Below, in pieces: positions 13,994-37,683 of a stretch of 64,000 nt of DNA (position 1 is the stretch's first letter; each line of letters opens with the position of its first letter). The stretch comes from Paecilomyces variotii. Its lineage: Eukaryota. The notes under the pieces are model-generated. The model saw only the letters and a program-made list of their open reading frames with translations. It was not told where the DNA came from and ran no database searches. Location of the stretch: assembly GCA_004022145.1 (NCBI GenBank), contig RCNU01000005.1; one strand, written 5' to 3'. Made by a program: the position numbers and the translations under genes.

Positions 13994-16058
13994 ATGACGC
14001 TTGTTCAAGATCTAGCAACAGCAAATATTGAGCCATCGTTGAATGGCAATGGGATAGACCACGTCGTTCCTGCGCCTGCATTATACGATCTGAAAAATGC
14101 GCCAGTAACCGAAGTCAAGAGGATCCCTCAAGATTCTACAACAGAAGCTCCTGCAACCAAGCCGCGATTTGAACTTGAAGAACATCCCGTCGACCAGGTC
14201 AGAGATATCAAAGTTGGTGTGATTGGAGCTGGGTTGTCGGGCGTATTAGCGGGAGTGCTTCTGCCAGCGAAGCTGCCTGGTTTGGACCTACGAATCTATG
14301 ACAAGAATCCGGATGTGGTGAGTCCGTTTAATGCTTCGACAATTGCTCGTGGTTCAAAGCTAACGTGTGATAGGGTGGCACTTGGTATGCAGTAATAGTC
14401 CTTTGGCAATCGCAATATGTTACTCTAGCTAACAATGACGACGGTCAGGTTCGAAAATACCTATCCCGGCGTCAGATGCGATATTCCCGCCCATGTGTAC
14501 CAATCAGGATTCGAACCCAACACGCAATGGAGCGAGGAGTTTGCCCAAGGCAAAGAGATCAAGGAATACTGGCAAGGAGTTGCACGAAAGTACGACGTCT
14601 ACAAGTATTTGAAACTGAACCACCGAGTCGAAAGGGCAGAATGGCTGCCGGACGAGGGTAAGTGGAAAGTTACATTGAAGGATCTGAAGGAGGACAGAGT
14701 AAGCAGCACGTTGGCTAGTGGTTGTTGGTCTCCTCATCTGACGTGACTTGCAGGTGTATGAGGAGCTGCTGGATATCCTGATCGGAGCTATCGGCCATTT
14801 CAACGCCTGGAAGCTCCCGGACTATGAAGGAAGAGATCAATTCAAAGGAACGATCTTCCACTCTTCTAATTGGAACCACGACGTCGATCTCACCGGCAAG
14901 CGCATTGCCCTCATAGGAAATGGAGCATCAGGACTCCAGGTTCTCCCCTCGATCCAGCCCATTGCAGGTCATGTTGACCACTATGCTCGGAACCGAACAT
15001 GGGTGGTGGACTCGTTTGCCTCGACAGGTGTTCGCAGGCTCGAGCCGAATCTCTTCTCGAAAGAGCAACTGGAGTCTTTCAAGGATCCAGAAAAGTACCT
15101 GGAGTATCGACGAAGCGTCGAGAAGGGCTACTTCCAGAGATTCAGTGTCATCTTCAAAGACTCTCCCGAGAACAAGGAATTGCGCTCAAAATGGAGCAAG
15201 ATGATGCTAGATCGGGTGGTTGATAAGCCTGAGCTATCAGACAAGATCATCCCTGACTTTCCACCAAACTGTCGCCGACCGACTCCCGGTCCGGGATATC
15301 TGGAAGCATTGACCAAGGAGAACGTCAATTTCATCCAGACGCCTATCCAGCGCTTCACAGAAAAGGGAATCGTAACCAACGACGGCATCGAGCGGGAAGT
15401 CGACGTTATCATCTGCGCTACTGGTGCAAACGTCGACTTTGCTCCTCCGTTCTCTCTCATCGCCAACGGCATTGATCTGAAGACGGCATGGAAACCAGAA
15501 GGCCACTTCGGATTTCCATACACTTATCTCGGTCTCGCAACTCCCGGCTTCCCTAACTTGCTCTGGATCGGAGGCCCTGCTTCCTCTGGTTACAGCGGCT
15601 CTGTCCCAAACAACGTCGAAAACCAGATTACCTACCTCGCCAAAGTCATCCGCAAATTCCGCAGCCAAGGAATCAAGAGCCTGGCGCCATCGAAACAAGC
15701 CACGGACGACTACGTTGAGTACAGCGATCGGTTCTACCCTCGCACGGTCTGGACCGCCAACGATGACTCTTCCGAAGGAAACAAGAACTGCAGTTCGTGG
15801 TATAACGGTGGACGACCGGGTGGTCGCGTACATGGTATCTTCCCTGGAAGTGCAAGTCATGCCAACTATGTTCGGCGGGATCCCAGATGGGAAGATTTCG
15901 AGTACACGTATCTTAACCCTAGCGGGAATCGGTTTGCTTACTTTGGAAATGGGTGGACGAAGAGAGAGTTGGATCCCGAGGCGGAACTCACGCCCCATCT
16001 TACACTTCCTGAGAAGATTGATCTGAGATCATATATGGAGGGTTGGTGGGATGTATGA
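13994..16058 (+). CDS. FAD/NADPH-dependent Baeyer-Villiger/FMO-type monooxygenase, 4 exons, ~629 aa
   Basis: GAGLSG and GNGASG Rossmann motifs, GGTWFENTYPGVRCD, BVMO fingerprint FKGTIFHSSNW, ICATG. Exons 13994-14317, 14374-14384, 14449-14698, 14754-16058. Confidence 0.9.
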
Positions 16059-16478
16059 GTGGTCTGCGATAAGTTTACGAGTAAAGACAGATTATCTTAT
16101 ATGGAGAATATCAAATATTTCTTATATATAGGTAGCATGTATGTAGCATGTGCGATGAACCTCCCGACTTCCTCTTCTATCACATACCCCTTACAAGAAA
16201 ACTTGGCAATAGTTTATAGATGGGTTGGTAAATATGCCCATTGCTTATGGAATACTAAGACTCGCTGACTCGACCAACAACGCCAAATAGTATGATTTAA
16301 CTCTCTAGTACCGTATCTACTGCAGAGATATATTCCCTGCCTTTAGTCTCTGGTGAAGTACAGTAATTGACTGCCAGATGCGGGAGCTAAAATTCATAAA
16401 TAATCATTGCATCGTACTACTAACTCAAGTACTTCTGCACTTACTATGGTGTACTCCGACTTAGATGTAATTCTAGCT

Positions 16479-18745
16479 TTATCGATGGATACTACCAAAC
16501 CTCTGCCTATCTACGCCATGTTTCCGCTCAGAATACTGGCGCTCCAATCCAACATGCTCCGGTCTCGCCCTCCCGGGAAATCTCGGCTCGCCTCCGAGAC
16601 TTTCAAGGACGCATTTATTATTAGCAGTCAAGTCATCCATGACGTTGAGTTCGTGCTGGTTGAACCATTTCGGAATCACATATACCCGGAAGGGAATCAA
16701 TGCGATAATCAAAATAGGGAAACCTGATACTCTAGGTATTAATAGTGTTCCTGGAAGAATATATGTCATGGAAGAAATATTGTCAAGTACTGACCAATTG
16801 CAGCGATGGTTTGAGAAATGGCAACACAGGCAGCGACGTCTATCGCTTGACATGCGACCCATAGCAAGACTTTCCGCTTTCGCACGGTAAGTAGCGGTTC
16901 ATCTCGTTGGATGAATCGGTTTTCTCTCAGGACGAATAGAATTTTTAATAGAATCCCGTTCGTTTCAATCGATCCCCACTATATCATCATGCACGTTTGT
17001 TTTAGCAATCGTATAACGAGAAACATCTGGGAATGAGAGAGTCCTGGCCCCGTTATCTACGTACCCCGACAATGAAGAATACACCTGCAAAAACAGCGGA
17101 TGGCATCGTATGCAAGACTATCAGAAGTGGTCCAGTCATGGTACCGATGATAGCTAAAGCCATGAAGAAATGCGATATACGTTGCTCAACTACCGCAGTG
17201 GCTTTGACTACTGGTCGGCGGATCTCGGATCCTTCTCCTTCTTCAGTCGAGATGATCTGGACATCCGTCTCGTACACCGTGAGCGAGTCAGTATGTACGG
17301 GCGCCTGGAGCGTTTGTCAGTTTGTATATATATCTTGGAAACTCGTTGCTGTTGACGTCTTTGACATACTTGTGGAACTAAACCATTGGGCATCGGGATA
17401 CCGATGATGCCGGCTACAAAGGTCGTGCATCCCAATAAGAAGAAATCCCAATGAAAACCTGCTGGTTTCTTCAGTGGGTATTGGCGTGCTTGGGCAGTTA
17501 AGCTGCTGACGTTCTGTGTGGTGTCAGCACAAGAAGTCTCCGTAGTATGTACTCAATGGCTTCGAGACAAGGTAGAGTTACATGGTCATAGTAGAAAAGA
17601 AGCATAATCAGGAATCCGAAGGGCAATGCAGCAAAGACCCATTTGGCATCCAAATGCCAGAAATGGATTAACCAGCCTCGATCCTGCGATGGATAGAAGG
17701 CGCGAGAGACTGGCACCATAGAGATGTTCGCGGTTTGCAAACGACCGGGGAAATGTGCGAATCCGACCCAGAAGAGAGTTCCGATCTATACTTAGGTGTT
17801 GTGAGTTGAAGCCGTATTCCAAATCATGGCATTGTCGAAAAAGAGAACGTACCACATATGCGTAATCTGCCAGGAGCCCTCTGAGAGATGGTTTCCACAT
17901 GGTACTGGATCCTAGCTTCTCCAGTCCATAGATGGTTCCGAAATACAAGATGGCAATCATGCAACTCAAGTATCCGGCATTACTGCCCCTCGCATCGAAC
18001 TCGCTAGTTAATTCTTCGACGCCTTTGACTGTATATAATCCAGTTAAGCTGATATCTGCAAAAAAAATATTTTCCGACTGGTCTTACTTACTGCAGTAGA
18101 TTATACCCACGTACATGCCAAACGCTTCACTGGAGAAATCCGTCACATAGCGCATATAGTCACAAAGATTACACAATGAGACAATCCAGTGGAAGATTGC
18201 AGCCCAGATGCCCGTCCATGCCATGAAGCTGGGGTAAATAGAAGGCTCGTACTGTACAATGATCTCATAGATGGTATAATTGAACAGCGATATCAAACCG
18301 GTTATACCGACAATAGTCAAAGGCTGCGCTCCGAGAAGACTGAAAACGACAGCAGCGAGCGCGGATGAGAACAATGCTTCGTTAATGCCGAAGAACCCTC
18401 CTGTGCGACGGTCCATATCGAGGGTATAAGCGATGGCTGGGAGGATGCTGGAGTTGGGAAGTGAGCATTCCACGCTCTCCGCGGACATACAGAACCAATT
18501 GTAATGGTTAGGAAGGTCACGTACTTCACAAAATACATCCGGACCGTACTGGCAATCGTTCGGTAGGTGAGTGCATCCGTGATATCGCTCCAGTAATATG
18601 GTAAGCGCCTTCTCACATCATGATACATGCCTCGACCTATACAAAGCCACCGTATTCCTCTCCATCCATCCAGTCCCTCGTAGCCATAAGCTCTTTTGGG
18701 CTTGTCCCTTTGGGAGCGGGCTGAACTGTTCGAAGGGGACGTCAT
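16479..18745 (-). CDS. Bor1-like SLC4 (HCO3-/borate) anion exchanger, multi-exon
   Basis: DVRRRLPYYWSDITD, LPAIAYTLDM, QPLTIVGITG, FYYDH|NVSSLTAQARQYPLKKPAGFHWDFFLLG, NGLVPQ, VVEQRISH; CAACAATG start at 18745. Confidence 0.9.
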
Positions 18746-19471
18746 TGTTGACCAAGCGTCAGATCTCAACTACTGCTCTGGCATCGGATAATAGAATCGA
18801 AGACGACACAGAGACGAGATGGAAGTGGCGTGCAGAATGGTCTGCAGTGGACTTGATATTGTGACTGTCCTCTGGATATAGGTAGGCTAGGTTGAGGGGA
18901 ACGACTTTTTTTTATAGTCCTAATATGGAGCCAACTCGCTTGTCATTCTCTCTGGCCTCTCATTAGGCAAAATTAATACGGAACCAAGTCCCGGGTCCGT
19001 AGGTACGTGCACTACAATAGGAATATGGACTCTATAGAGCTGGATTCAATTGTGGTTTCAAGATCCCGATTCAATCATTCCCTTTGCTCGCGTGGCTGAT
19101 ATAAAAGGAGTCACTGGTGTAAACACTACCACAACGGATTGAAATCATTGACACATCTTCAAAGGCAGAGTTGCTTGGATCGAAGAGACTGAAGATGAAT
19201 CTCCATCCTGTTCTGCCCGGGCAGAAGATGACTAACTATCTCCATATCCGGGATGGAGATAGCTTGGCGCATTTGCCATCAACACAAGGAGGATCTTGGC
19301 ATCAGTAACATCATTCACTCTCGAAAGAGGGCTCTTCGGCCCAAGGGAAATTGAGAGTTAGTTCGTTTGGCTCGTAGCTATGCGCAGTGAATGCAGAAGT
19401 GGTGGTCATCGACACAAGATAGGCCCATATCAACCGGTTAAGTAATACAGTCGTTCTGTCTGTATCATACA

Positions 19472-21758
19472 ATGACCGCTATGGCGACCTCAGTGCCGAC
19501 ATGCAGACCCCCATCTGACGGAGAGCCATCTCGTGGTCCAACGTTGTTAGATCTCCTCAAAGAAGAGATTTCTGCCCAAATTAGCGCGCCAGCTTCGGAA
19601 CTTGACTCGCGAGATGGGCCATACTTACGAATTGAAGGCGTACTCTGCGGTTCACTGGACGACGTGCGCGAAAATGGGTTATCTGTTAACCAAAACGACC
19701 AGCGGCTGGTCCTGGTAAGGACTGCAGCTAATTTGGGATGGGCCTGTCTAATAGTGATTGCTAATATGAAGTCCAGGGATATCTCGCTTTCAAAAATGGA
19801 GAATTGATCCGCAATCCCATCCCCAAAGCATCGGTCCTGTTGGATTCCCAAGTAAGAAGGTTCTAAATATTCAAATGATCTCAGGCTGACAATTGCTCTA
19901 TAAGTGTCAGGTAGCGGAAGGAGAGGGTAAAGACAGACCGAATTGGAATCCACTGTCAACACCAGACTCCGGGCAAAGTGATGGTGGAGAGGGCTGCAAG
20001 AGGCGCAAAGTAGTTGGTGGCCTCCGGTTACAGAATCAAGGGAGTAACTCTGCGAGTGTCTCGGATGACGCAGCATCGGATTCTGGTTCTGGACATGAGC
20101 GCGGTGATGCCAGTGAAAACATATCTGTACGTCAGGTACTCAGTGATGTGACTCGCTTTCCTCTGCGGAAGCACAAGCGCAAGGTCGCTGGACCGGTGTT
20201 AGAACCAACCTCGGTGGATAGGCTCATAGCTGGAATATGGCGTCAGGTGCATTCGTCTGTACAGCTAAGTAGGCCTACGCTGGTATGTACACCCTGGAAA
20301 AAAGGCGATATTTCACCTCTAACACAGAGCAGCAGCAAAACACGGTTATTCGTTCTTATGGCTCATTGAGTAGTGAGGTCAGTTATCATCTGGTTCTTGA
20401 TGGATACAGATTCAGGCTCAGCAGTTCATTTATAGGACTTTCGAGAAGTCAGTAAGACGTGTTTGAGATACTATAATCAGAGCCAATCGTCCCGTGCGCT
20501 GGAAATGGTCGCACAGGCATATTGGGTTGAATGCTACGAAGGACGCATAGCTGCTGTGAGGACTGAAAACGAGGGATACTCGGCTACAGATGCTCACATG
20601 GCCGTCCTAGCAGAAGCCTGCGCTGCTCTTGGATGGAAGGAGAAGGACCTGAGAAATCGATTGTTCGTCTCATGATCAATGAGGACATGTCTGGGATGCT
20701 GACATGTCATATCAGAGCTATCTGGCGTGGCTATAAGGAGATCAAGGATGCCGGAGGATGGGCCTGTCTCATCTTTGCCAGCGCAGGTGTTTACCGCTTC
20801 TGCAAATACCGAAAAGGACATGATGAAGGCCTCTGGCCAAAGCTACAGAGTGTCCGGCACAGCGTCGAAGTTGCCGCCGACACTCTACATCCCGAGTGGC
20901 GGAACCTGGTCGATCTTATAGGACAAGAATCTCCTCGGAGGTATCATGGGAATCCACATCAATGGGTGACTATACGTTCCAAGCCTGCGATACCTATCGA
21001 GTTGACCTACAGCCATTTGCCGAATGGTTTCGATTATACGTTTATAGACGAGTGTATTCTGGACCGCAGTGCCTTCGGTGATGAAGATCCTCGTCGAATG
21101 CTCGGAGTAGACTCCGATACATGTCATATTTGCAAGCAACTGCAGTCGGATGATGTCCGTTTGAACCGTTGTTCTTGCTATCCTTCTCTGTTTGGGGCTC
21201 CTAAAAGCCCTGTGCCGGTGCAGATTTTTCATACGTCCACTGGAAAGAATAATGGCATCATTGCCCGTTGCGTAAGGATCCAAGCTGTCTCCATTGCTGA
21301 CGATATCTCGACTAACGGTGATATTAGAATTTCGAAAGAGGAACGGCTATTGGAGAGTTTGTGGGACTTGTCACCAAGGGAGTGCAAGGTATGGATGTCA
21401 TGGTTGGAGGTTCCCGTGAGAATACCTTCCAGATCTTCCAGGGTAAAATGGGTTCGTAAACTATTTATAAATGGATCCTATTCTGACAGTCCACTAATAT
21501 AATATACTTGCAGGCAACTTTACGCGATTCATAAATCATTCATGCTATCCTAATTGCCAGTTCCAGAAATTCTACTGGCGCGGCATTGAACGCATTATTG
21601 TTGTCTCCCGTGGTATAATAATGGGCTCTGAAATCACAGTCGACTACTCAGACCATTATTGGAAACAACTGGATAAGGTATGTCTTTGTGGCGAGCCATG
21701 CTGCCGGTTCTCGAACAGACAGGGACAGGAGTCGCGTATAAGGAGGAAAGATACATAG
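19472..21758 (+). CDS. Uncharacterised fungal SET-domain protein with Cys-rich pre-SET-like and post-SET segments, multi-exon
   Basis: Last exon reads GNFTRFINHSCYPNCQF...GSEITVDYSDHYWKQLDKVCLCGEPCCRF...TAG (21756-21758); upstream CHIC...CSC. GT-AG introns join ORFs 19472, 19893, 20463 and 20633; start codon less certain. Confidence 0.8.
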
Positions 21759-21837
21759 ATGAAGCCGAGTCTTGGAATAATTCATCTTAATCCTCTAGAC
21801 CGGTAGAGTTCACAACCGAGACGACCTTTCAAACGTT

Positions 21838-23307
21838 CTAATTCTCTTTCTGGAGCACATATTTTGGCGCCTCCTCCCCTTCCTTCCAGAAATACTGCGC
21901 CCCTGGATGCGTATCCGGCAACCTATTCTGCCCTGCTTTACCATATACATTCTCGCGGAACGTACCTCCCTTCACTGTATAATCATCCCAGAACAGCCCT
22001 CTCTTCCGCAATTCAGGTAGCAGATACGTGATGATATCCTCAAACGTCTCTGGGATACTAGCAGCGCTGAAATTGAAACCGTCCACATCGGCTACTTCAA
22101 CCCATTTCTCCAGCTGATCTGCCACTGTCTTTGCGCTGCCGATGATCTTGGGACCGTTACCGCCGAGCTTCAGGTACTCTGCGATGGTCTTCTTGTCCCA
22201 TTTCTTGCCTTCAGTTCCCGGAACTGTGCTAGCCCAGTGGTTGACCATGCTGCGGATCGCGGGCTGCTCGACGAAACGGAAGTCTTGGTCTTCGGGATAT
22301 TTGCTAAGATCGTAACCTGACCAGCCACCAAAGAGGGCCAGGGCACCTTCTTCGTCTCCATATGAAGCAATCTCTTCGAACTTGGCTTGTGCGGCTTCGT
22401 CCGTCTCCGCGACGATAGCCAGAACACCAGCGATGATCTTGATACTGGACGGATCGCGCCCAGCCTCCGCTGCCTGCTTGCGAATCGAGTCGACAGAGGG
22501 TCTCACGAGCTCGGGCGCATGGCCATTCAGGAAGATAGCCTCCGCATGCTTCGCAGCAAACGCCTTTCCAGCCGTAGACGTCCCCGCTTGAAGCAACAAC
22601 GGCGTCCGCTGAGGCGAAGGCTCAACGAGATGCGGTCCTGGAATCTTGAAGTACTTCCCTTCATGATTAATCTGGCGCACCGCATGAGGATCCGCATATC
22701 TCTTCTCGCTCTTCTCCACAGCTCCGTCCCTCCAAGACCCCTCCCACAACTTATACGTCACATTCAGATACTCATCTGCGATTCTATACCGCTCATCATG
22801 CTCAATCTGAGTGTCCAGTCCAAAATTCCTCGCCGCTGAATCCAGATACGACGTAACGATATTCCACCCCACGCGGCCACCGCTCAAGTGGTCAACGGTC
22901 GAGAAGCGACGCGCCAGCGCATACGGCGAATCATACGTCGTCGATGCAGTAATTCCAAATCCAATGCTCTGCGTCGCGGCCGCCAGGGCCGAGACGCTAT
23001 AAAGCGGATCAATTATAGGGAATTGCGTCCCGCCAGGAATCGTAGGATCAAGATTCGCAGGTCCCTTGTATACGTCGTAGCCGCCTAGGACATCTGCGAA
23101 GAAAATAGCGTGGAACTTCGCGGCTTCGAGCTTCTGCGCGATTGAGATCCAGTGCTGGATCGAGTTGTAGGAACTGCCTTTATCTTTGGGGTAGCGGTAT
23201 AGACCCGGGTTAAGGTGTGTGGGAGCTTGCATCGTGAAAGCATTCACGATGAGCTGCTTCTTAGCTGGTGATGAGGATGAGGATGAGGATGAGGATGAGG
23301 ATGCCAT
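21838..23307 (-). CDS. NtaA/SnaA/DszA (bacterial luciferase-like) FMNH2-dependent monooxygenase 1, intronless, 489 aa
   Basis: FFADVLGGYDVY, ARRFSTVDHLSGGRVGWNIVTS, HDERYRIADEY, KLWEGSW, PSPQRTPLLLQAGTS, DVDGFN, LLPELRKRGL. Confidence 0.93.
   Translation of the reverse strand: MASSSSSSSSSSSPAKKQLIVNAFTMQAPTHLNPGLYRYPKDKGSSYNSIQHWISIAQKLEAAKFHAIFFADVLGGYDVYKGPANLDPTIPGGTQFPIIDPLYSVSALAAATQSIGFGITASTTYDSPYALARRFSTVDHLSGGRVGWNIVTSYLDSAARNFGLDTQIEHDERYRIADEYLNVTYKLWEGSWRDGAVEKSEKRYADPHAVRQINHEGKYFKIPGPHLVEPSPQRTPLLLQAGTSTAGKAFAAKHAEAIFLNGHAPELVRPSVDSIRKQAAEAGRDPSSIKIIAGVLAIVAETDEAAQAKFEEIASYGDEEGALALFGGWSGYDLSKYPEDQDFRFVEQPAIRSMVNHWASTVPGTEGKKWDKKTIAEYLKLGGNGPKIIGSAKTVADQLEKWVEVADVDGFNFSAASIPETFEDIITYLLPELRKRGLFWDDYTVKGGTFRENVYGKAGQNRLPDTHPGAQYFWKEGEEAPKYVLQKEN
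23270..23303. repeat. (GATGAG)5 hexanucleotide repeat encoding the N-terminal poly-Ser of monooxygenase 1
   Basis: Read directly from the sequence. Confidence 0.9.
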
Positions 23308-24502
23308 TGTGAAGGGTATAATATTGTTTTGCTTATTTCTCAGTTGAATTGTCCCGGGTTCAATTGAAGAAAATACAAGAGAAAATGGAAATGGGAGCGA
23401 TGGCCGGACCCTCCTTGGAAGCCACGAAAGAGAAAAGAGAAAAGTCTAACAAGTTCCTCGTTCTGCTTTCCCTTTCTTTTTTCTTTGCGAAGTAAGATCC
23501 AGAGTACTTCTTCCCAGAAGCCCCTCCCCTCCGTCCACCCCTCCTTCGTGTCCCTTGTGCCCCTCACCCTACGCCTGGGAACTGGAACTGGAACTATACT
23601 ATGACCAGAAAAGGAAACAGATGCGCCGGAGAACTATACTAGGCCTCTCCATAATAATAATCACAGCCACAATTTCCTCAAGGCCGTTTTCTCTCCGTAC
23701 AGGTACAGTACATACCATACAAAAAACAAATCCTCCACCGCGGACATATTCCGACACGAAAAACCAAAATAGGTAAGGGACACGCGAAAGAAGATTATTC
23801 TACAGAGGAATTACAGATAGGAACGGTTCGAGGTGTCAATGCGTTGCTTCCGTGATAGGTTGGACATTGATAAAGCAAATACCGGGGTGCTATTGCGTCA
23901 GTGAACCCCGGAATCTCCTAACCATACATGAGCACTCTATGCAGTAACTAGTTAATGTTACCTACGGAGCTTCTAGACTAACTTTTATATAATTGATAAT
24001 TACAAGCTGTTTACTAATTAAGTGACTACTTTGAGGCGCGGAAGATGCCCGTGCGTAATGTTGCAAAAGGGGCTATTTTGAGGTGAAGTGAGGTATCATT
24101 GGTCTAGTCGTAGTATGTATTGTTGCACGGTGTCTAGATTCATCTAATGTTGATCGAAGATTAATCCGATTGATGATAAATACAAAATCTTGAGATCAGA
24201 CGACCTTTCATCGGAGATTAAGCAACGTTGGCGGTGGTGCAGTATCCGATTTCGGTGAGGAATTGTTTTGCAGGTCCAATCTACATGAGTTCAACTATGG
24301 AAATTTACGTGGAACATGTCTGGAATTAACGTTATTATACATCAGCACGAAGATTGCTAATGTATAGGTAAGACCACCGAAGTCAAATTATTCTATAGAC
24401 ATTTTAGTATCCATAGTCTATGGGTGTCATGTTTATAATCTAAATCAGACCGTGGCCGCCATATGTGTAAATGTCGTCTTCTTCTGGAATGGAAAATCCC
24501 AG

Positions 24503-25898: not shown

Positions 25899-26597
25899 TG
25901 TACCTGCTGCTATCAATGGTCTGCGCAATGTACACCACCAAAGAGAAGAGGTATCGGCGCGCTTTGAAGAGAAGGAAAATACTGTATTATACGAGATAAT
26001 AGAATCTGCAAAGTAATCCGGGTCTCAGGAACCAGCCCGAAATCCCACGCTTATCGGGATTATTCGCCATTGATTACGGATCTGAGGCACAGCAGGGCAT
26101 TACAAAACCCGAACCGTGCTTCGCCGGAGATGATTGGGCTTGAGAGGAGACGATTCAAGTGGAAACTCAGAATACGGCATGTTTTGGTACTTCGTGTTAG
26201 TATATCGGATTCGCAGCTGATGGTTGATATGCTCATGGCGGGGTCGTATGGCGTGATAGATCGATGTCATTGGAGGGGTAGCATGAAGAAACAGGAGGGG
26301 AATAGAAGAGTATCGAGCGGTTCAGTCGCTGTGTTACGCATTCCAACGCTCTTTTATCATCTTCAGTTGCTTGGGTTCTTCAGGGGTAGCGATCGTTCTT
26401 TCCAGACAGGACACTGGGTTATTACGGCGTAACAGGGGATACATTTGTCGCAGAATCCATTTTCATTTGCGACTCTACTCCAGACGCATCGATGTAACCA
26501 AGGGGGGCTGGTGGATGGACAACGTTGATTATCGTTGCCCGTTTAGCCACAGGATGCTGATGTGATTGCGGGTTCGGATGACGGGAGATTTTAACAT

Positions 26598-26621
26598 TCT
26601 CTCTCTCTCTCTCTCTCTCTC
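26598..26621. repeat. (TC)12 microsatellite in the divergent MDR/monooxygenase 2 promoter
   Basis: Read directly from the sequence. Confidence 0.9.
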
Positions 26622-27109
26622 GCCTGAGCTTCCCTTCCCGTTGCCGACAACTTCATGGGTAATAAGCGAGCGCCGTTAGAAATCAAAAATCTTAGGAATC
26701 ATTGCATTTCCCTTTATCTACATTACAGGGGTCCAATACCCTGCTTATAGCGTAATAATATGCGCCAATGGTGCGGATGTCACCCCGCAGCAGATATTGT
26801 AAAATTGGCTTGTATTATTTTGCGCCTCTTAACAACCAGACTACGGCTAAAGATACCAGTATGGTATTGTAGTGTTATCACGAAATACTCGGGCATATGT
26901 TTTGCATGCATAGAAGATGTATCTCTTAATAGGTCTTAGTGCGAGACTCGTGCTACGTTTGGGTCGCATACTTGAACAGAGTGAAGTCGTCTGTTTCCGG
27001 CACACGCTTCTTTTGTAAATATATCTACTTCACAGTTGGCCTAAAAAGAAGTCTCTCGATAAAACAGTGACTTCTATATTCGAACTCTGAGAAGGCTAAT
27101 CAAATCACC

Positions 27110-28826
27110 ATGGGTTCAGTAGGCGATGCGAACTATGAGAATGGGGCTGGGGGACAGAAGCAGATCCTTCTAAATGCCTTTGATATGTCCACGGTGGGAC
27201 ACTTATCACCAGGCCAGTGGAAAGTAGGCAAAAATCAACGATTGGGATCCAAGCTAGCGACATTATGTTGACCACTGCTTCATAGGATCCGGATGATAGA
27301 TCAGCCACGAAACGAAAGCTGGACTACTGGGTTAATTTGGCCAAAGTGTTAGAGAAAGGAGATATCAATGCTTTGTTTCTGGCTGACACCTACGGTGGCT
27401 ATGACACATATGAAGATTCGCTGGACAATTGTATCCGAAGAGCTGCGCAATGGCCAGTCACGGACCCTACAATTGTAAGACCCTTCTTGTCCCATCTATT
27501 TTTCTGTCGTCTAATTATCTGTTGTGTATAGCCGATCAGTGCCATGGCTGCAGTGACCAAGAACTTGGCTTTCGGGATTACTGCCTCAACATCCTTCGAA
27601 CCTCCGTTTCTTCTGGCGAAGAGATTCTCCACACTCGACCATCTGACAAATGGCCGAATTGGTTGGAATATTGTGACATCCTGGAAGAAAGGGGCGTTTA
27701 AGGCTATTGGACTGGACGAACCGATCGAGCATGACCGTCGTTATGCTCAAGCAGATGAGTATCTGCGTCTAACATACAAGTATATTACTCCACCCATATA
27801 TTCGTATGATATATACTAAATTTGCATAAACGTTTAGACTATGGGAAGGCTCATGGGCAGATGACGCAGTCGTTGCTGATGCGGAGAATGATACCTATGT
27901 TGATCCGGACAAGGTCAGAGTGATTGACCACAAGGGAGAATTCTACAACCTTGAAAGTAGACATATCGTCGATCCTAGCCCTCAGAGGACGCCGTTCCTC
28001 TTCCAAGCTGGAACATCACCGTAAGTAACGCTCCCCATATCTATCCCGCTTGCCACGGATGCTAAATTGATTTTGCAGAGCCGGGTCCCAGTTTGGTGCA
28101 ACTCATGCGGAGGCTATCTTTGTTTCCGCGCACAGCCCTTCTGTCTTGAAGCCCAGGGTTGCAAAGATTCGGGAATTGGCACAGGCGGCCGGTCGTGATC
28201 CTCAATCCATCAACTTCTTTGCTACCTTTACCCCGATTATTGGCCGGACAGAAGAAGAGGCAAAAGCAAAGTTTGAAAGAGCGAAGCGCTACGCTTCCCC
28301 TATCGGGGGGCTCGTTCTCTTCTCTGGCTGGACGGGAATAGACATCTCCAAGATCCCGCTGGATGAGGAGATAGACCCCGAAAAGCATTCTCTAGAGAAG
28401 CACAAGGTTACGTCGATCGCAGAAACTCTCACTGCCAGAACTCCAGAGCTACCCTCCCTGACACCTCGCTTGGTCGCTGAAGTTGCGTCCATCGGTGGGT
28501 TAGGACCTGTAGCTGTTGGTACTCCAGCCCAGGTGGCAGACGAGCTCCAACGTTGGATCCGGGAGGCTGATATCGACGGATTCAACCTTGGTTATGTTAC
28601 AACGCCTGGAACCTTTGAAGACGTCGTCGATTTGCTCGTACCCGAGCTTCGCAGTCGCGGCGTCTACCCTCCAAAGAGGGATGAGCAAGATCCACCACTG
28701 ACTGCCCGGGAGAAGGTGTACGGAAAAGGTCAAAATAGGCTGCGTGACGATCATGTGGGCAGTCACTACAAATATCCAGTATATAAGACCGACCCTCCCT
28801 TCATTAAAGAGGCTCCTTCGCAGTGA
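27110..28826 (+). CDS. NtaA/SnaA/DszA-family FMNH2-dependent monooxygenase 2, 5 exons, ~493 aa
   Basis: LNAFDMSTVGHLSPGQWK, FLADTYGGYDTY, AKRFSTLDHLTNGRIGWNIVTS, PSPQRTPFLFQAGTS. Exons 27110-27223, 27286-27474, 27532-27779, 27838-28020, 28079-28826. Confidence 0.93.
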
Positions 28827-29577
28827 ATATAGCTGCCTGTCTGTCCTTGATCAGATTAGCATTATTGACACGGGGATCTAAAGTCAGACGATAGACGCCG
28901 TTATTCAAGAGCGGCCGTCCTCGTGGTCTGGTATTTCGAACCCCGAGATAATTTCAGGAACCAGTCCATATAACACGAATAAAAGGATAAATTCATTATG
29001 ATTCATCCAATCAGTTCCCTGTTAATTCACTCGTTCGTTAACCAACTAACTAGTTAGTTAGCCAACTAGCTATTTTTACATAAGCATAAGACAGGCCGCG
29101 TCTCTTTCGCGTTCTAGTTAACTATTTAGTATGAGACTATGAGCTAAGTAGTTTGATGCTAATTTATCTTCAACGTTCTGGAATGCGATGATAAGACAAT
29201 ATGAGTTATACAGGCCGCAAAAAGGCTTATTCCTGCTGCATATTTCGGCATAAGCTTATCATGCCCAGTTGTTTCGGTCAGCTCAGATCATGTACTCCAA
29301 TCACTGGGTCTTACATCAATGTAGGGATGAATGGCGTGCGATCGGACAACAGTGCCAACCCTGTGTTTCTCTCTATTTCAGACGCCATGTTTACAAATAC
29401 ACTACAGCAATGGGCATCTTGCTACCTGTGCCGTAGATACTCAATTTTATCTCTCTCAGACACTCCCGACATATCGAGACCCCTTTCACAGTCTAATATT
29501 GCTATGCCTTAATCTGGATCGGCACCTTCATCTGGTTAGCCACTACGAAGCTCAATAACAGTTACAGGACCGAAACA

Positions 29578-31305
29578 ATGGATGACGCGGAGACTCTGAC
29601 GGAGGCTCTTCTGCCAGCATCTCAGGACTATCAGACATTCAGCACAGAGAGACCGTCGCAAGAAGAAGCAGAAGACCTTCGAGCCATCGAGCATGACACG
29701 CTACCAGAGACGGCCACCTACGGCAGGAATCTCAACTGGTCCAGTGCCTACATCCTCGTCATATCCAGAGTCATAGGGAGCGGGATATTTGCGACCCCAG
29801 GAGCGATACTGAAGTCGGCGGGAAGCACCGGTTTGGCACTGGTATTATGGGTCGTCGGTGCTATTTTATCAGCATGCGGTCTCGCGGTCTCCCTTGAATA
29901 TGGATGCATGCTGCCTCGGTCCGGTGGAGATAAGGTCTATCTCGAGTTTACCTATCGACATCCTAGGTTCCTCGCCTCAACCCTGATAGCCGCACAAGCA
30001 GTGCTTCTAGGCTTCACAGCCAGCAACTGCATTGTATTTTCCAAGTACATATGGTTTGCGCTCAATGTGCAGCCAACGGAGTTCCAAAATAAAGTCTTGG
30101 CTGCCGGCCTATTAACGATTATAACGTTCGTGCACGCCCGATTTCTGAAGACAGGCATTTGGATCCAGAATATGCTAGGGTGGATCAAGGTCTTCCTAGT
30201 TGCCATAATGGCAATCACTGGCCTGTTCGTGATTACATTTCATCATCAAAAGGATACCGATATTGGGTCTTCTTCCACGGCTGCTGCGACGGCCTTGCTT
30301 TCCTGGGATGAACTCTGGAGAGATACTAACTGGAGCTGGGGAACCATCTCCACATCCCTCTTCAAGGTCTTCTACTCATATGCTGGCCTGAGTAACGTCA
30401 ATAATGTCTTGAATGAAGTCAAGAACCCGGTTCGCACTCTAAAGACTGTCGGTCCGGCTGCTCTTATCACGGCGTGTGGCCTCTATCTTCTGGCCAATGT
30501 ATCTTACTTTCTCGTGGTTCCGATCCAAGAGATCAAAGAGAGCGGGGAATTGGTCGCAGCCCTATTTTTTGAACGGGCCTTTGGACCTCATTTGGGCAGA
30601 ACGATCCTCCCTTTAGCCATCGCAATTTCAGCAGCTGGAAATGTGATGGTGGTCACATTCACTCTTGTAAGTGGCCTATGTCTGCGATTTCAGCTGGACT
30701 CTGACAATGTATAGGCACGAGTGAACCAAGAAGTGGCCCGCCAAGGCTTCCTACCTTTTGCCAGGACGCTATCCTCCTCTCGCCCTTATAACTCTCCCCT
30801 GGGTGGTCTTATCGTACACTATATCCCATCTATATTGGTGATAACTCTTCCACCGCAAGGTGATGTCTATAATTTCATTCTTGACGTGGAAGGCTATCCC
30901 GGCCAGTTCTTTGCGTTGGCGATTACAGTTGGTCTTCTGCTTTTACGTTATCGACGTCCTGATCTCGAAAGACCGTTTAAAGCCTGGCTACCTGCTGTGT
31001 GGCTAAGGATTATTGTATGCCTAGCTTTGTTGGCAGCACCATTCTTCCCGCCTCCGGGCTGGAAAGGGGACGTGGATTTCTTCTATGCTACTTATGCCGT
31101 AGTTGGCGTGGGAATGTATGTCATCACTTCAATTTCTCATATCTTTGCTCAAGCTGACTTAAACAGAATCCTTTTCGCTGTAATCTACTGGTATGTATGG
31201 ACGGTTTTGCTACCTAGATGGAGAGGATATACTTTGGAAGAGGAGGTTGAAGTTCTGGAGGATGGGACCAGCATTACGAAGCTCGTCCATTATTATAAAT
31301 CATAG
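29578..31305 (+). CDS. LAT/APC-family amino-acid permease, methionine permease (Mup1/Mup3)-like, 3 exons
   Basis: SRVIGSGIFATPG, EYGCMLPRSGGDKVYLEFTY, SYAGLSNVNNVLNEVKNPVRTLK, ARVNQEVARQG, RPFKAW. Confidence 0.88.
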
Positions 31306-31716
31306 ACTATAAATGATCAGTAGGATAGCTATCAATAGAGCGTCATAGTTTCCCAAGGATGATAATTATACCGAGTGTGACATGTTGCCTAAATTCTGAA
31401 ACCGATCATGCGCCCCTTATCACTCCTGCAGCTACGCGGATTGTTCGTTATTTGCCAGCGAGTATTGAGTTGGCTTCCGGGATCAGCATAGTATGCATCA
31501 GGTCCAATAGGATCTATTTGCATTTCTCAGCATACAACTTTGACGCTATCGACTGTAATAATGGCATGCTGATCTGACAAATTGCCAGCTTTACCCCGCT
31601 TCTGTCATATACAAAATATCAAATATATATAGAGCTTTCTTGTAATCCTACAATATAGATCCTCAAGCACAACATATTTGCTTGTGGTCTTTACATAAAG
31701 GTATTATTCAATCGAC

Positions 31717-32694
31717 ATGGCTTCTGCAGTAGTGGGCCTGCCTTCTGGACAGGACGCATCCCTTCATGTCCAAAAATCGTTCCCCGTTAATTCATCAGAA
31801 AAGCCCCATCATGTTCAGACCATTCTTAATTATTACAAAGATCCTGGCGATGGCTCTCTTCCTTCGCCATCCTACGTCGGCAGGCCAGAAACCTACAATA
31901 ACAAGCCTGTGGAACCTACCTCGGTCACTGTGACGGATATTAGCGGCCATGAACTTGATTACACTCTCGACAAGAACGGCTTTCAGATCTACTATCATGA
32001 GAGTAAGGAAAAGGACTTTCTTGACGACGAGAAAATCCAAAAGGAGTATTATCCCGAGACAGAACAGTTGTTGAAGGACGCGTGAGTTGCATGATCACCT
32101 TCAAGCCCGTGATATTCTGGGATAGATAGCTGACAAGATGTGTGATACTGCTATAGGACCGGAGCTTCCCGCGTCTTCATCTTTGATCACACTATCAGAC
32201 GAGCTCCAAAAGATACTCGCACTCCCGAGGCTCAACTCCGAGGTCCAGTACAGCGCGTGCACATCGACCAGTCTTACGAAGCCAGCAAGAACCGTGTCAC
32301 TCACCACCTCCCTGACGAAGCCGACGAGCTTCTCAAGGGTCGTTACCAGATCATCAATGTCTGGCGCCCGATAAAGACCATCTACAAGGATCCATTGGCT
32401 GTCGCGGATGCTCACACTGTCCCCGACAGCGACCTCGTCGGTGTCCCTCTGATTTACCCCAATCGAGCCGGAGAGACTTACACTGTGCGACCGAACCCAG
32501 CACACAAGTGGTACTACCGCTATGGACAGACGCCGGAGATGGTCACTCTGATCAAGTGTTTTGATTCCAAGACCGATGGTCGAGCTCGAAGAGTGCCTCA
32601 TACCGCGTTTATCAATCCCGAAACTGAGGGAGCAGATCCGCGTGAAAGTATCGAGGTTAGAGCTCTTGTATTCCATCCCGAGGATAGGGATTAA
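31717..32694 (+). CDS. AsaB/CmcJ/NvfI-like (GA4-desaturase-related) oxygenase, 2 exons, ~300 aa
   Basis: YTLDKNGFQ, YYPETEQLLK, FDHTIRR, VHIDQS, INVWRPI, PHTAF, RESIEVRALVF; intron 32082-32156. Confidence 0.88.
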
Positions 32695-33493: not shown

Positions 33494-35069
33494 ATGGCGG
33501 ACCGCAAAGTGGTGGTTCCTAACGATGAAGAGATAGCTTACTCTCACAGTCAGGAACATCCAAATGGTATGTTATGTTCACAATAAACAGTTCTAAGAAT
33601 GCGCAGGCGCTCACACAACGCAGTGAAATGGTATCGATCGACTTTCTACAATGCGCTCATTCTGGGACTGTGCAACTTCCTCGCCCCGGGTATCTGGGGT
33701 GCAATGAACTCCCTCGGTGGTGGAGGAGACGAGTCACCTTATTTGGTCAATGCGGCCAATGCTCTGACTTTCTGTCTGATGGTATTATCATGTTTCTTTG
33801 GAAGTGTCGTGGTACGCTATATCGGGATTAAATGGACGTTTATTATTGGGACGATGGGATATGCGCCCTTCGCAGCAGGGCTTTACACTCATAACCGATT
33901 TGGGTTTGACTGGCTGGTCCTTTTAGGTGCAGCACTATGCGGCCTGTCTGCTGGAATTTTCTGGATGGCGGAAGCAGCAATTGCTCTTGCGTATCCTGAG
34001 CCCCATAACCAGGGACGTTTCCTCGGCTTTTGGTTGAGTTTCCGTGTCGGAGGACAGATCGTTGGAGGCGCTGTGAACCTGGGCATCAACATCAAGAGAA
34101 ATACCGCGGGAAAAGTCTCATATACCGTGTTCATCATTTTCATCGTGCTCCAGGCACTTGGTCCGTTTGCCGGTCTTCTCTTGAACAAGCCCTCGCAAGT
34201 TCAACGAACTGACGGGCTACCGGTCCGATTGAGAATCACCAAAAGTCCATGGGTTGAGGTCAAGGAAATGACCAAGCTCTTCTTCAGCCGGAACTTCCTG
34301 TTGATTGTCCCGCTTATCTCCCAGGCTGTCTACTCCGAGGCAGTCATGTACAGTTACCAAGACTTATGGTTCAGCGTCCGAGCTCGTGCTCTGGGATCGT
34401 TCCTCTCTGGAATTATTGCACTCATTCTGGGGAACGTCCTTGGTGCTTTTTTGGACCGGAAAGATATTTCTCTAAAAAAGAGAAACCGCTTTACGTTCTT
34501 CACGGTACTCGCGCTCCAGGGTGGCTGGTGGATATGGGGAACAATCCTGGTCACAGAGTTCCATAAGACGAATCCATCTTATGACTGGGTCGACCCTGGT
34601 TTTGGCAGAGCCTTCGCCCTATTCTTATTCCTGGTTGCTGGTTTTCAGCTGAACTATCTCTATCTGTGAGTCACTTATTATTCCGTTCTCCCGTGTAGAT
34701 CCTGAACCGGCGGAAACCTAACATCTCACTACAGGTACTTCGTCGTTGGGAACATCGCCAAGGACGAAGAAGAAGTCATTCGTATTGCAGGATTGCTTCG
34801 CGGTACCGAGTCTGCGGCTCAGGCTGTCAGCGTAAGTAATGCTGTTTTCCGTTTAAACAGAATATGCTGAAGATGAACTAACGTTGGAACAGTACGGCCT
34901 TAGCAGTGTGCCTATCATGGCATCTATCGGGAATTTCTATCTCAACTTCGCTCTCTGGGCGGTTGCATTGATTCCAGCATGGATTGTTACAAAGGATATT
35001 GGTGTCACGCTAGGTGACAGGAAGGTTGAGAGAGAAACAAAACTCTTGCGTGAATCTGCAAGCGAATGA
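33494..35069 (+). CDS. UNC-93-like (DUF895) MFS membrane protein, 4 exons
   Basis: LGLCNFLAPGIWGAMNSLGGGG, AGIFWMAEAAIALAYPEP, FSVRARALGS, GLLRGTESAAQAVS|YGL; first intron 33567-33590. Confidence 0.85.
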
Positions 35070-35350
35070 GAGGAGCTCCGTATTAGAGTACTTGCTTTGA
35101 GGATGTGCAAACAGGAATACATACCTTTTGACTTCATTAAACATCGAAGTTTACAGCAAAGTCCACTGCCCAATATTGGTTCTTTTTATTCAACGCTATC
35201 AAAGCTTCTAATTTGGTCTATATATGATAATTTTCGTATTAGTACGAAGGTCTTCGTTTGTGATAGGTATAAACGACGAGTCTATAACTAGACCATAAGC
35301 ATCATGAACCCCAATTTTGGTTTTAGCTAGTACACCATAACCTAAATCTT

Positions 35351-37213
35351 CTACACCGCGCTGACTTCTACCTCTGCATCTTTCCTCCGAATACCTGAAT
35401 AAAACTGCCTCTCCTCCAAAACCTTAATATCATCTCCTGCAAAAACTTTCCCTTCCTTCTGCGCTTTGTGTCGCAGCCGAGCAATCCTCCGCACGTCCCA
35501 TTCCAAGTTCCTCGTTAACCACCACGTCCATAGATTCGCAAAGAAGGCCGCAATGATCGAAGAGCCCGCGATTGCGAAACTGTTCTTGTAGCGGTTATAC
35601 GCCCATTTCTCCTGAAAGAGTTGCGGTCCAATCACACCACCTATTTGACCGACGCAGTTTTGGAAGCCCAAGGCGAAGGCCGCGCCAGTTGAGCCCTTTA
35701 GGGTCGTGGAGCGCCAGGCCCAGAAGGGGATGAAGTACATGCTGTAGAACATGGTGCCGAGGATACAGGCGACGTAGATTCCGGCGGGTGATGATATGGT
35801 GAAGAATAGTACGAAACAGACGACCATGCCGACCATGATGATCCTTTGTATATAGAGGTTAGATCACGGAAGCTGCCAGTATTTCGTAGCGATGGGATAG
35901 GGAGGGGAATCATACATAATATAAGCCGGTCGGGTTATATAGGCCCGTTTGATAAAATAAGCAGAAAATATAATCGCCAGAATGGAAGCCGCTGCAGGCG
36001 GGATATTAAGCAGCTGGTTCTTCGGTAATCCAGCAAACCCAAGACTTGTGGTGATTGTCGGCAGGTACCAACTGAGCGAGTAGCCACCTAGATTAACAAA
36101 GAACTGCGAGAGCATGAAGGCCCACATCGATTGTGTCTTCAGTGCTTCGATTACTTCTTCCTTCTTAAAAGCGGGATCACTGGTCACTGGAGCAGTTTCT
36201 GGCAGACGCGCCTCTATAAATTCCTGTTCTCGTGATGTGAGCCACTTGTTGCTTCGGGGGGATTTTGGGTAGTCGGGCAAGACTAGCCAGATGATAACAG
36301 AGAAAAGGATCGTCGCAATCCCCTCGAGGAGATAGACCCTGAGAATATACGTCAATATTTCGATATTACAGGCTGCGAGCAAGTCAAACTCACCAACGCC
36401 AGGCACTCAGCCCCCTCATGCCATTCATATAGCTGATGGCATAGCAAATCAATGACCCGACCACTGTTGCCAATTGTTGAATGCCGAACATCCATGCAAT
36501 AGGTCTGCCCATCTCGTCTGGGCGATACCAACTGGCCAATTGTACAGCCACCCCTGGGAACATTCCCGCCTCCAGCATACCCAGAAGGAATCGCAGCGCA
36601 TATAATGCTGCACGATTCTGGGCCGCAGCGTGACAGGCAAGGATAATGCCCCAAGAACAAAAAATTCGAGTTTGCCATACACGTGGGCCCACTTTCTTCA
36701 TGACCAAATTGCTTGGAGCTTCGAAGATAATGTAGCTGATCTAAAGATGGCATCGCAAGAGGTTAGCCAAAGAACGTTAATCTTGTACGAAGTATGTCCA
36801 GTCTTACAAAGTAGATAGATTGAATCCAATTATACTGGTCGGCTGTCATATGGAGTTCTTTCAGTATATTTCTGTCACTTCCCACCTGGAGCACTTTAAC
36901 ACTCGAGGCATTGGTGTAGTCAATCTATTCACATATTTCCAATCCCAGGTCAACAACCATTTGCACGCTGTATCCATGGCTAACTTACCGTCTTTATCAT
37001 GTACATTATTCCAGTGAGGAGCAGGAACCGCGCATCCACCTTCTTCATGATACTCTTCTCTTCCTCCGCCGTGAAGCTCGACAGGAATTCTGCTTTTGCT
37101 ACGGGGTCATCGCGCAGAATCCTCTCTTCAGCCCCAGTGACCTCAAGAGCGGGCCGTTTGCCTGAAGATTCAGACGGAGGCCCTTTGGGACGAGCCTCTG
37201 TTGTTGACTCCAT
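35351..37213 (-). CDS. MFS transporter, anion:cation symporter (Dal5/Tna1/Soa1/AstA-like) family, multi-exon
   Basis: MKKVDARFL, IDYTNAS, FEAPSNL, RFLLGMLEAGMFPG, WYRPDEM, GLSAWRW, LLEGIAT, LPDYP, LLNIPP. Confidence 0.88.
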
Positions 37214-37666: not shown

Positions 37667-37683
37667 ACGCCATCGGATGGCGT
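37667..37683. promoter_or_regulatory. Inverted repeat ACGCCATC-G-GATGGCGT, candidate CYS-3/MetR-type bZIP element
   Basis: Perfect 8-bp arms; includes ATGGCGTTAT (one mismatch to ATGRYRYCAT); ~460 bp upstream of the MFS ATG at 37213. Confidence 0.45.

Follow-up and report, generated by a model that had tools for sequence, protein, structure and literature searches.

Introduction

The closest described systems are bacterial clusters of the sfn/msu, dsz, and Bacillus ytmI/yxe type that combine an FMNH2-dependent luciferase-like monooxygenase (LLM) with a separate S-oxygenating flavoprotein, SfnB or DszC, and that have methionine-type transporters nearby. The 4S pathway of Rhodococcus follows the same logic: the sulfur atom is oxygenated, and the C-S bond is then cleaved by DszA, a member of the LLM superfamily. 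Fungi are also able to live on sulfides, sulfoxides, sulfones, and sulfonates. Here we analyze a block of ten genes (A to J, Table 1) in a 64,000-nucleotide stretch of a Paecilomyces variotii contig (accession # RCNU01000005.1); this whole stretch is called the window. The block encodes a Baeyer-Villiger monooxygenase (BVMO) of the flavin-containing monooxygenase (FMO)-like type and two LLMs, LLM-1 and LLM-2. The BVMO and LLM-1 genes form a conserved gene pair across Pezizomycotina. We judge, with slightly more confidence than doubt, that the block is a patchwork around one conserved module of two enzymes, the BVMO and LLM-1, that releases sulfur from organic compounds.

Sulfur regulation of the LLM, FMO, and permease families in fungi is already in print. 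Table 1 of a Trichoderma reesei study lists four DszA-type monooxygenases that were repressed, up to 8.6-fold, when methionine was added, and the same study reports methionine repression for FMO, high-affinity methionine transporter, and allantoate-permease-like major facilitator superfamily (MFS) genes (PMC4536894). Neurospora crassa CYS-3 is reported to bind and regulate a gene annotated as "dibenzothiophene desulfurization enzyme" (PMC8550094). For Candida parapsilosis and C. albicans, induction of PF00296 enzymes, FMOs, and SOA1 by sulfur limitation via Met4/Met32 has been described (PMC11502921, PMC13170222); single mutants in the 2026 Candida study are reported to have no phenotype on sulfonates (PMC13170222). 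The present locus resembles these three regulons at the level of gene families, and the sections cited here describe no physical linkage and no BVMO-LLM pair. According to a 2018 review, Paecilomyces oxidizes diphenyl sulfide to the sulfone and converts dibenzothiophene to 2,2'-dihydroxybiphenyl, the product expected of a DszA-type route without DszB; the review describes fungal FMNH2-dependent monooxygenases as uncharacterized genetically or biochemically (PMC5857272).

A conserved BVMO-LLM-1 gene pair

Metagenome contigs were scanned with a profile of 27 fungal LLM-1 orthologs, which returned 80 loci. Nine of these (L001 to L009) contain LLM-1 orthologs at 70-78% identity, representing at least four lineages that are at most 73% identical to each other. 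Two of the nine contigs are too short to judge the flanks. In all seven informative contigs, a BVMO ortholog (50-77% identity) directly adjoins LLM-1. The two genes are convergent in L001 and L002, divergent in L004, L005, L006, and L008, and in tandem in L009. Because the adjacency is kept through three orientations, inherited synteny alone does not explain it.

Among the matches listed, nine named species have both genes from the same assembly, and the BVMO and LLM-1 genes carry consecutive locus tags in each of them (Aspergillus nanangensis, Malbranchea cinnamomea, Rasamsonia emersonii, Helicocarpus griseus, and five Penicillium species). The other tagged LLM-1 entries have no BVMO partner from the same assembly among the matches listed and are uninformative either way. 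The window by itself cannot show that the juxtaposition exceeds chance; that it does so follows from the pair adjoining elsewhere.

An ortholog of the UNC-93-type MFS transporter (74% identity) directly follows LLM-1 in L004 and L005, two contigs with the same sequence; otherwise, the Pfam matches on the contig flanks were to unrelated genes. In L001, an open reading frame (ORF) with a STAS domain (L001:20765-21460) lies about 7 kb from the BVMO-LLM pair. The STAS domain is the C-terminal domain typical of SulP sulfate permeases.

In the window, genes for a Bor1-like anion exchanger and a SET-domain protein stand between the BVMO and LLM-1. Six P. variotii strains are like the window, with the BVMO and LLM-1 three locus tags apart; the two genes are adjacent by their tags in P. 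variotii No. 5, strain DTO271G3, and two P. lecythidis assemblies. These four other Paecilomyces annotations have neither the Bor1-like nor the SET gene between the pair. As judged from the annotations, the two genes therefore resemble a lineage-specific insertion or a presence/absence polymorphism, and they are probably not part of the module. A search for repeats around the Bor1/SET segment returned short, chance-level matches only and no transposon-like ends. Three DNA-like sequencing runs from one study with the same organism label (X15-X17) contain only 0.66 of the sampled words of positions 21800-31300, compared with 0.99-1.00 in two others. This shortfall suggests a diverged lineage or a partial absence of the region in some strains.

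LLM-2 belongs to a separate, widespread ortholog group (63-86% identity across several classes). In Xylona heveae, which belongs to a distant class, LLM-2 (KZF18924), the BVMO (KZF18925), and LLM-1 (KZF18928) fall within five consecutive accessions. A third fungal paralog, LLM-1-like (56-60% identity), is present in L010 and L011; in L010 it has no BVMO partner and lies about 6.4 kb from an LLM-2 ortholog. Judged from annotation, LLM-2 is on the same contig as the pair in three named species and on a different contig in ten (Helicocarpus, Onygenales sp. PD_40, Talaromyces proteolyticus, four Aspergillus species, Penicilliopsis zonata, P. angulare, and P. pancosmium); in P. longicatenatum it is 677 accessions away from the pair. 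Because linkage is found in Xylona heveae and L010 but LLM-2 is on another contig in the ten species, the three oxygenases come together repeatedly, not generally.

Identity of the three oxygenases

The initial annotation had read the first gene of the block as a BVMO/FMO, and this assignment holds. Gene A matches PF00743 (FMO-like), and its closest solved structures are type I BVMOs, cyclohexanone monooxygenase, and phenylacetone monooxygenase (E ~1e-31). The hallmarks of type I BVMOs are two Rossmann GxGxxG motifs and the fingerprint FxGxxxHxxxW[P/D]. The gene A model contains GAGLSG, GNGASG, and FKGTIFHSSNWN, in which the fingerprint ends in N instead of P or D. Over its last exon, gene A does not differ from a P. 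variotii protein of 629 aa (100% identity).

With 486 bits, LLM-1 clears the TIGR03860 cut-off of 279.7, which places it in the NtaA/DmoA family. LLM-2 reaches 122 and 174 bits against the same model, scored exon by exon only; it aligns to DmoA and groups with LLM-1 in the tree described below. In searches against solved structures, LLM-1 is closest to DmoA of Hyphomicrobium (6ak1, E 1.9e-133), followed by LadA (3b9n, 3.6e-123), HcbA (2.1e-94), and DszA (5tlc, 3e-73); YtnJ/MoxC (2e-66), nitrilotriacetate monooxygenase (3e-52), SfnG, and SsuD are farther still. The last exon of LLM-2 gives the same ranking, with DmoA at E 7e-44. The label "DszA family", under which both LLMs were first filed, therefore does not survive in the sense of DszA orthology: DmoA and LadA are both nearer than DszA, and the database name is a loose annotation. 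No DszB or DszC homolog is present in the locus.

Both LLMs align with DmoA from end to end, and LLM-1 shares with it a Leu at the position of LadA His311. In contrast to the DmoA system, the fungal LLMs form clades of their own, and no gene for a small DmoB-type reductase subunit adjoins them. LLM-1 keeps the residues aligned with LadA His17, Tyr63, and Gln79, which together with His311 we take to be the catalytic residues, and it carries a segment that is found in DmoA and missing from LadA. With three of the four residues kept and Leu at the His311 position, LLM-1 does not have the full residue set of a LadA-type alkane hydroxylase.

LLM-1 is 99% identical to a P. variotii protein. Its N-terminus (positions 23260-23307) includes a run of about 13 serines, and the read mapping skipped 23261-23312 as a repeat; members of the LLM-1 cluster in Paecilomyces strains range from 482 to 489 aa, a spread that may reflect variation in the length of the serine tract. 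For the last exon of LLM-2, the best match of at least 435 aa among the matches listed is from Rasamsonia byssochlamydoides (86%), with no near-identical P. variotii protein. DNA runs labeled as the same organism contain the LLM-2 stretch, and LLM-2 may be mis-modeled or missing in the public P. variotii proteomes.

Bacterial relatives and phylogeny

The closest bacterial LLM homologs (44-52% identity) were located in 22 loci, in which 86 ORFs were scanned. An acyl-CoA-dehydrogenase-like gene lies beside the LLM gene in 11 of the 22 loci. All 14 such ORFs match TIGR04022, "SfnB family sulfur acquisition oxidoreductase"; six of them pass the cut-off, and for two the DszC score is slightly higher. 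A low-GC locus (L024) also contains MetQ/MetI/MetN-type transporter genes and an amino-acid permease gene.

In a quick maximum-likelihood tree of 103 sequences, which was rooted at the midpoint and has several long branches, the three fungal clades, LLM-1 with its sister LLM-1-like and LLM-2, form one group (Shimodaira-Hasegawa-like approximate likelihood ratio test, SH-aLRT, 87), with LLM-2 as the sister of the LLM-1 clade. The fungal group lies inside the bacterial sequences, beside a high-GC clade with six SfnB-linked loci. LLM-1 is intronless in the window and in all nine orthologous loci, and LLM-2 has four introns. The nested position of the fungal LLMs and the intron pattern fit a putative old transfer from bacteria with subsequent duplication.

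In contrast to the bacterial clusters, the partner of the LLM in the fungal pair would be a class B BVMO/FMO and not a protein of the acyl-CoA-dehydrogenase fold, as SfnB and DszC are. The fungal genes also differ in having separate promoters and, in the case of LLM-2, introns.

Promoter sites

The CYS-3 consensus given for N. crassa from DNA affinity purification sequencing (DAP-seq) is ATBRCGCCATC (PMC8550094). The window and ten fungal loci were searched (205,226 bp), of which the promoters of the cluster genes and their orthologs make up 20,867 bp. With at most one mismatch, the consensus occurs at 36 sites, 12 of them in promoters, where 3.66 would be expected (binomial 1.5e-4). The half-site RCGCCATC occurs at 31 sites, 11 of them in promoters versus 3.15 expected (binomial 1.5e-4). 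De novo words over 13 promoters of LLM-1/BVMO orthologs included ACGCCATC-type words, which correspond to the right half of the CYS-3 consensus. The other top k-mers were mostly A/T-rich and of low complexity, at or near the shuffled maximum, and only the RCGCCATC-type words were pursued.

In L001, L002, L003, L009, and L010, sites precede the LLM-1-type gene by 120-235 bp, and 10/11 matches are found upstream of the LLM-2 ortholog in L010. The clearest sites in the window are the palindromic pair upstream of gene J and the 10/11 match in the promoter between genes E and F (Table 1). Motifs for yeast Cbf1 and Met31/32 (CACGTGA, AAACTGTGG) were searched for in the block, and none was found.

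Gene content and transcription of the block

The window is fungal DNA with short introns, from P. variotii or a close relative (99-100% protein matches). The initial annotation had listed ten genes without a polyketide synthase (PKS) or nonribosomal peptide synthetase (NRPS) backbone. Every one of the ten is present: all families were recovered when ORF pieces were searched against Pfam, NCBIfam, and the sequences of the PDB, and both edges of the block coincide with start codons in the exon models (13994 is the ATG of gene A, and 37213 is the ATG of gene J on the minus strand). The observation of the block is thereby confirmed. The exon models come from our own gene-finding script and were refined with cDNA contigs. 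The domain scan covered 136 ORF pieces (79 + 57) out of 210 ORFs of at least 90 aa, including all long ORFs. Across the 64 kb, these 136 pieces contain no PKS or NRPS domain, as had been stated, and also no terpene synthase/terpene cyclase or prenyltransferase domain, so that no secondary metabolite backbone of the PKS, NRPS, terpene synthase, or dimethylallyltryptophan synthase type was found.

Table 1. Features of the ten-gene block and sites in its promoters (positions in the window).
Feature	Position	Strand	Evidence
Gene A: flavoprotein monooxygenase, probable type I BVMO/FMO-like, 629 aa	13994..16058	+	Pfam FMO-like; cDNA 14700-16105
Gene A exons	13994-14317, 14374-14384, 14449-14698, 14754-16058	+	Exon model
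Gene B: Bor1/SLC4-type anion exchanger, at least 7 exons, N-terminus not resolved	16479..18769	-	HCO3_cotransp on three ORF pieces; TIGR00834
Gene C: SET-domain protein; upstream exons may begin at ~19472	20505..21790	+	NHSCxPN-type motif in spliced model
Gene D: LLM-1, FMNH2-type luciferase-like monooxygenase, NtaA/DmoA family, 489 aa, intronless	21838..23307	-	PF00296, TIGR03860
Gene E: medium-chain dehydrogenase/reductase (MDR)-superfamily reductase, 427 aa	24503..25898	-	ADH_N + ADH_zinc_N; weak YhdH/acrylyl-CoA reductase family match
CYS-3-like site, 10/11 to N. crassa DAP-seq consensus	26247..26257	-	MDR/LLM-2 divergent promoter
Gene F: LLM-2, LLM-1 paralog, 493 aa, 5 exons	27110..28826	+	PF00296/TIGR03860 on exon pieces
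Gene G: Mup-like amino-acid permease, probably L-type, ~542 aa; predicted start codon	29578..31305	+	AA_permease_2; TIGR00911
Gene H: CmcJ/NvfI-family Fe/2-oxoglutarate-type oxygenase, 300 aa	31717..32694	+	NF041278
Gene I: UNC-93-type MFS transporter; 3' exons predicted	33494..35069	+	PF05978/PF07690; intron 33566-33622 in cDNA contig
Gene J: MFS, probable anion:cation symporter (ACS; Dal5/Soa1-type) family, 534 aa, 5 exons	35351..37213	-	MFS_1; TIGR00893
Palindromic RCGCCATC half-site pair (10/11 and 9/11 to CYS-3 consensus)	37667..37683	.	~455 bp upstream of gene J

The cDNA contigs came from two runs of one study on food-fermentation metatranscriptomes (X5 and X6). Seven genes (A, D, E, F, G, H, and I) are represented by spliced and/or polyadenylated contigs, as is the 3' part of gene C; gene J lies outside the read-mapped stretch. 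Transcription and splicing are supported for at least eight of the ten genes. Neither run has a contig on ~16.7-20.7 kb (Bor1-like gene and 5' part of the SET gene), and this lack of cover, which is not proof of silence, was not used. Runs X2 and X3 were set aside as DNA carry-over: genes and spacers are covered alike with no splice joint, and the longest contigs of these runs are very long. Six more runs with the same species label, presumed to be RNA, contain almost none of the sampled words of positions 21800-31300 and were likewise not used.

In gene C, single ORF pieces have no Pfam match, and one cDNA contig contains the intron 21451-21512. Gene E and LLM-2 have a divergent promoter in common. 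Both introns of gene E (25045-25099 and 25548-25605) are confirmed in cDNA contigs of the two runs, and its model reads GRD at the position of a motif at which zinc alcohol dehydrogenases carry GHE. All four introns of LLM-2 are present in cDNA contigs, with a poly(A) loose end at ~29001. Gene G scores 217.7 bits against AA_permease_2, above the cut-off, and 212 bits against TIGR00911, below the cut-off of 701.8; its introns, at 30667-30714 and at 31116-31166, appear in cDNA contigs, as does a poly(A) end at ~31362. The cDNA contigs revealed one extra intron each in the Mup-like and UNC-93 genes. The second exon of gene H alone scores 192.9 bits against NF041278 (cut-off 80), which places the protein in this family, and its matches to solved structures include 7eus (E 1e-30) and NvfI (E 4e-17). 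The intron 32082-32156 and a poly(A) end at ~32762 of gene H are present in cDNA contigs; these contigs have the highest word depth of the stretch in both cDNA runs, a measure that cannot rank genes. The three large exons of gene J all match TIGR00893, each under the whole-protein cut-off.

The flanking genes are ordinary: an alpha-glucan-synthase-like ORF, aconitase, an ALG7-type glycosyltransferase (GT4), a WD40 protein, an amino-acid permease, a large SET protein, Cdc73, and an RGS protein. The nearest outer neighbors are housekeeping genes, aconitase to the left of the block and the ALG7-type GT4 to the right. The G+C-rich aconitase gene (10091-12472, minus strand) is mirrored on the opposite strand by an open frame of 790 codons without a family match, most likely an effect of base composition.

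A proposed route for sulfur release

A role of the BVMO-LLM-1 module in sulfur metabolism is supported by the context of the bacterial relatives, the phylogeny, the promoter sites, and the published transcriptomes; no one of these four is a direct test. The data show the gene content, transcription with splicing, the conserved adjacency, the setting of the bacterial relatives, and the enrichment of motifs; the chemistry, the substrates, the order of the steps, and the regulation are inferred. That class B flavoprotein monooxygenases can oxygenate sulfur is established. Gene A, with NADPH/FAD and O2, would oxygenate the sulfur atom of a thioether or sulfoxide and would fill the role of the unrelated bacterial flavoproteins SfnB and DszC. 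LLM-1, and perhaps LLM-2, would cleave the C-S bond with FMNH2; the reduced FMN would be supplied by a reductase encoded elsewhere. Together, the BVMO and LLM-1 would release sulfur from thioethers, sulfoxides, or sulfones. The product could be a sulfinate or sulfite, or a thiol and an aldehyde as with DmoA, and would pass into cysteine and methionine synthesis. The Mup-like, UNC-93, and ACS-type carriers may import the substrates, and the MDR protein may handle a carbonyl or enone by-product. LLM-2 and the MDR, Mup-like, UNC-93, and Dal5/Soa1-type MFS genes are plausible members of the MetR/CYS-3 sulfur regulon; they are not conserved neighbors of the pair.

Several observations weigh against this route. 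In the seven informative contigs, the Bor1-like, SET, MDR, Mup-like, CmcJ/NvfI, and ACS-MFS genes have no counterpart beside LLM-1, and the loose linkage of LLM-2 to the pair, described above, counts in the same direction. The scanned ORFs of the window gave no match to FMN_red or Flavin_Reduct (NAD(P)H:FMN reductase), nor to a desulfinase, an SfnB/DszC homolog, or Acyl-CoA_dh. Since it has no flavin reductase and no desulfinase, the locus is not self-contained; it differs from the bacterial clusters in both respects and in having no ABC transporter. The alkane hydroxylase LadA is only slightly less similar to LLM-1 than DmoA is, and DmoA itself serves carbon metabolism and is not known for sulfur scavenging. 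The cDNA contigs show transcription in food fermentations, whatever their sulfur status. The main text of a paper on metR of Aspergillus fumigatus names no metR-dependent DszA-type gene (PMC3757043).

The promoter analysis has its own share of such points. The motif test is post hoc, and the promoter limits are approximate, having been taken from tblastn. L001 and L002 are related, and without L002 the p value for the half-site is 0.005. A perfect ATBRCGCCATC is present nowhere in the 205,226 bp; the LLM-1 promoter of the window has no site at one mismatch or fewer, and its BVMO promoter has one-mismatch half-sites only. The strict CYS-3/MetR palindrome ATGRYRYCAT was rejected as support: it occurs once in the 64 kb, inside gene C, versus 1.2 expected, and it is absent from all block promoters and orthologous promoters.

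Alternative explanations

The similarity of LLM-1 to LadA raises the question of carbon catabolism, in which LLM-1, like LadA, would hydroxylate alkanes or another C-H substrate and the BVMO would turn the resulting ketones into esters (subterminal oxidation), with the MDR protein as dehydrogenase or reductase. We regard this as unlikely. LLM-1 does match LadA over its full length and keeps the equivalents of His17, Tyr63, and Gln79, the structures closest to gene A are type I BVMOs, and an MDR gene is nearby; however, Leu replaces LadA His311, as in DmoA, LLM-1 shares the DmoA-like insertion, and the MDR gene is not a conserved neighbor. The closest bacterial clade is linked to SfnB/DszC and MetQIN-type genes, that is, to sulfur acquisition and not to alkane use, and CYS-3-type sites are enriched in the promoters. 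The literature on fungal DszA-type genes, as far as the cited sections go, describes them as methionine-repressed or CYS-3-bound (PMC4536894, PMC8550094).

The initial annotation had proposed that all ten genes of 13994-37213 constitute one co-regulated pathway of import, S-oxygenation, C-S cleavage, and assimilation. The contiguity of the genes, with housekeeping genes only outside, speaks for such a unit, as do the cDNA contigs of runs X5 and X6 for seven genes and for the 3' end of gene C and the CYS-3-like sites in the promoters of gene J and genes E/F; the same families are reported as sulfur-co-regulated in T. reesei and Candida (PMC4536894, PMC13170222). The survey of loci in other fungi, which the initial annotation had named as a check, divides the proposal: co-occurrence was recovered for the BVMO and LLM-1, and the import, S-oxygenation, and C-S cleavage scheme retains this pair as its core, but the Bor1-like and SET genes contradict a single ten-gene unit, and the MDR, Mup-like, CmcJ/NvfI, and ACS-MFS genes lend it no support. 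In all seven informative contigs, the BVMO is the only gene of the block that accompanies LLM-1, apart from the UNC-93 MFS gene in L004 and L005. The four Paecilomyces annotations without Bor1 and SET between the pair also argue against the larger pathway, and L010, one other locus with an LLM-2 ortholog, has no MDR or Mup neighbor of that gene. We know of no role for SET-domain or SLC4 proteins in sulfur scavenging. A single pathway of ten genes thus appears improbable.

If the ten genes had no functional coupling, they would be unrelated metabolic and transport genes that merely resemble a pathway. Most of them are indeed not conserved neighbors, the strict MetR/CYS-3 motif is not enriched, and fungal genomes are rich in paralogs of each family (thousands of matches). 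This explanation has difficulty with the adjacency of the BVMO and LLM-1 in seven of seven contigs and nine of nine named species, in three orientations, and with the renewed grouping of LLM-2, the BVMO, and LLM-1 in Xylona heveae, and we give it only a small chance. A further reading takes the BVMO, the CmcJ/NvfI oxygenase, an MDR of enoyl-reductase type, and MFS exporters as the tailoring and transport genes of a secondary metabolite cluster with an unconventional or distant backbone, which is most improbable: CmcJ/NvfI-family oxygenases occur in meroterpenoid and cephamycin pathways (by family name and the NvfI structure match) and one BVMO ortholog entry is named "stcW-like", but none of the 136 ORF pieces has a PKS, NRPS, terpene cyclase, or prenyltransferase domain, housekeeping genes flank the block, the unit conserved elsewhere is BVMO and LLM only, and the bacterial LLMs of the clade are sulfur-linked.

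Conclusions

The initial annotation knew of no characterized fungal cluster of this composition, and none is described in the literature found. The conserved BVMO-LLM pair, its occasional extension by LLM-2 and UNC-93, and the idea of a BVMO in place of SfnB/DszC were not found there either; Linder 2012 and supplementary files and tables may bear on these points.

The conserved BVMO-LLM pair offers a two-gene target for fungal C-S cleavage in an enzyme family that has resisted functional assignment, and it points to thioethers and sulfones as candidate substrates rather than sulfonates. Should the reading of the pair as a sulfur-releasing module fail, the pair would still be a conserved two-enzyme unit. 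More tentatively, Pezizomycotina may possess a eukaryotic counterpart of the 4S/sfn systems in which a BVMO replaces SfnB/DszC and in which the LLM, from a lineage nested among sulfur-cluster genes of actinobacterial type, was acquired once and duplicated into LLM-1, LLM-1-like, and LLM-2; the pair could then underlie both the growth of fungi on thioethers and sulfones and dibenzothiophene desulfurization by Paecilomyces. If true, this would be a non-orthologous replacement of SfnB/DszC by a class B flavoprotein, in a pathway otherwise common with bacteria, and it would bear on biodesulfurization and on how sulfur cycles in soil and in fermentations.

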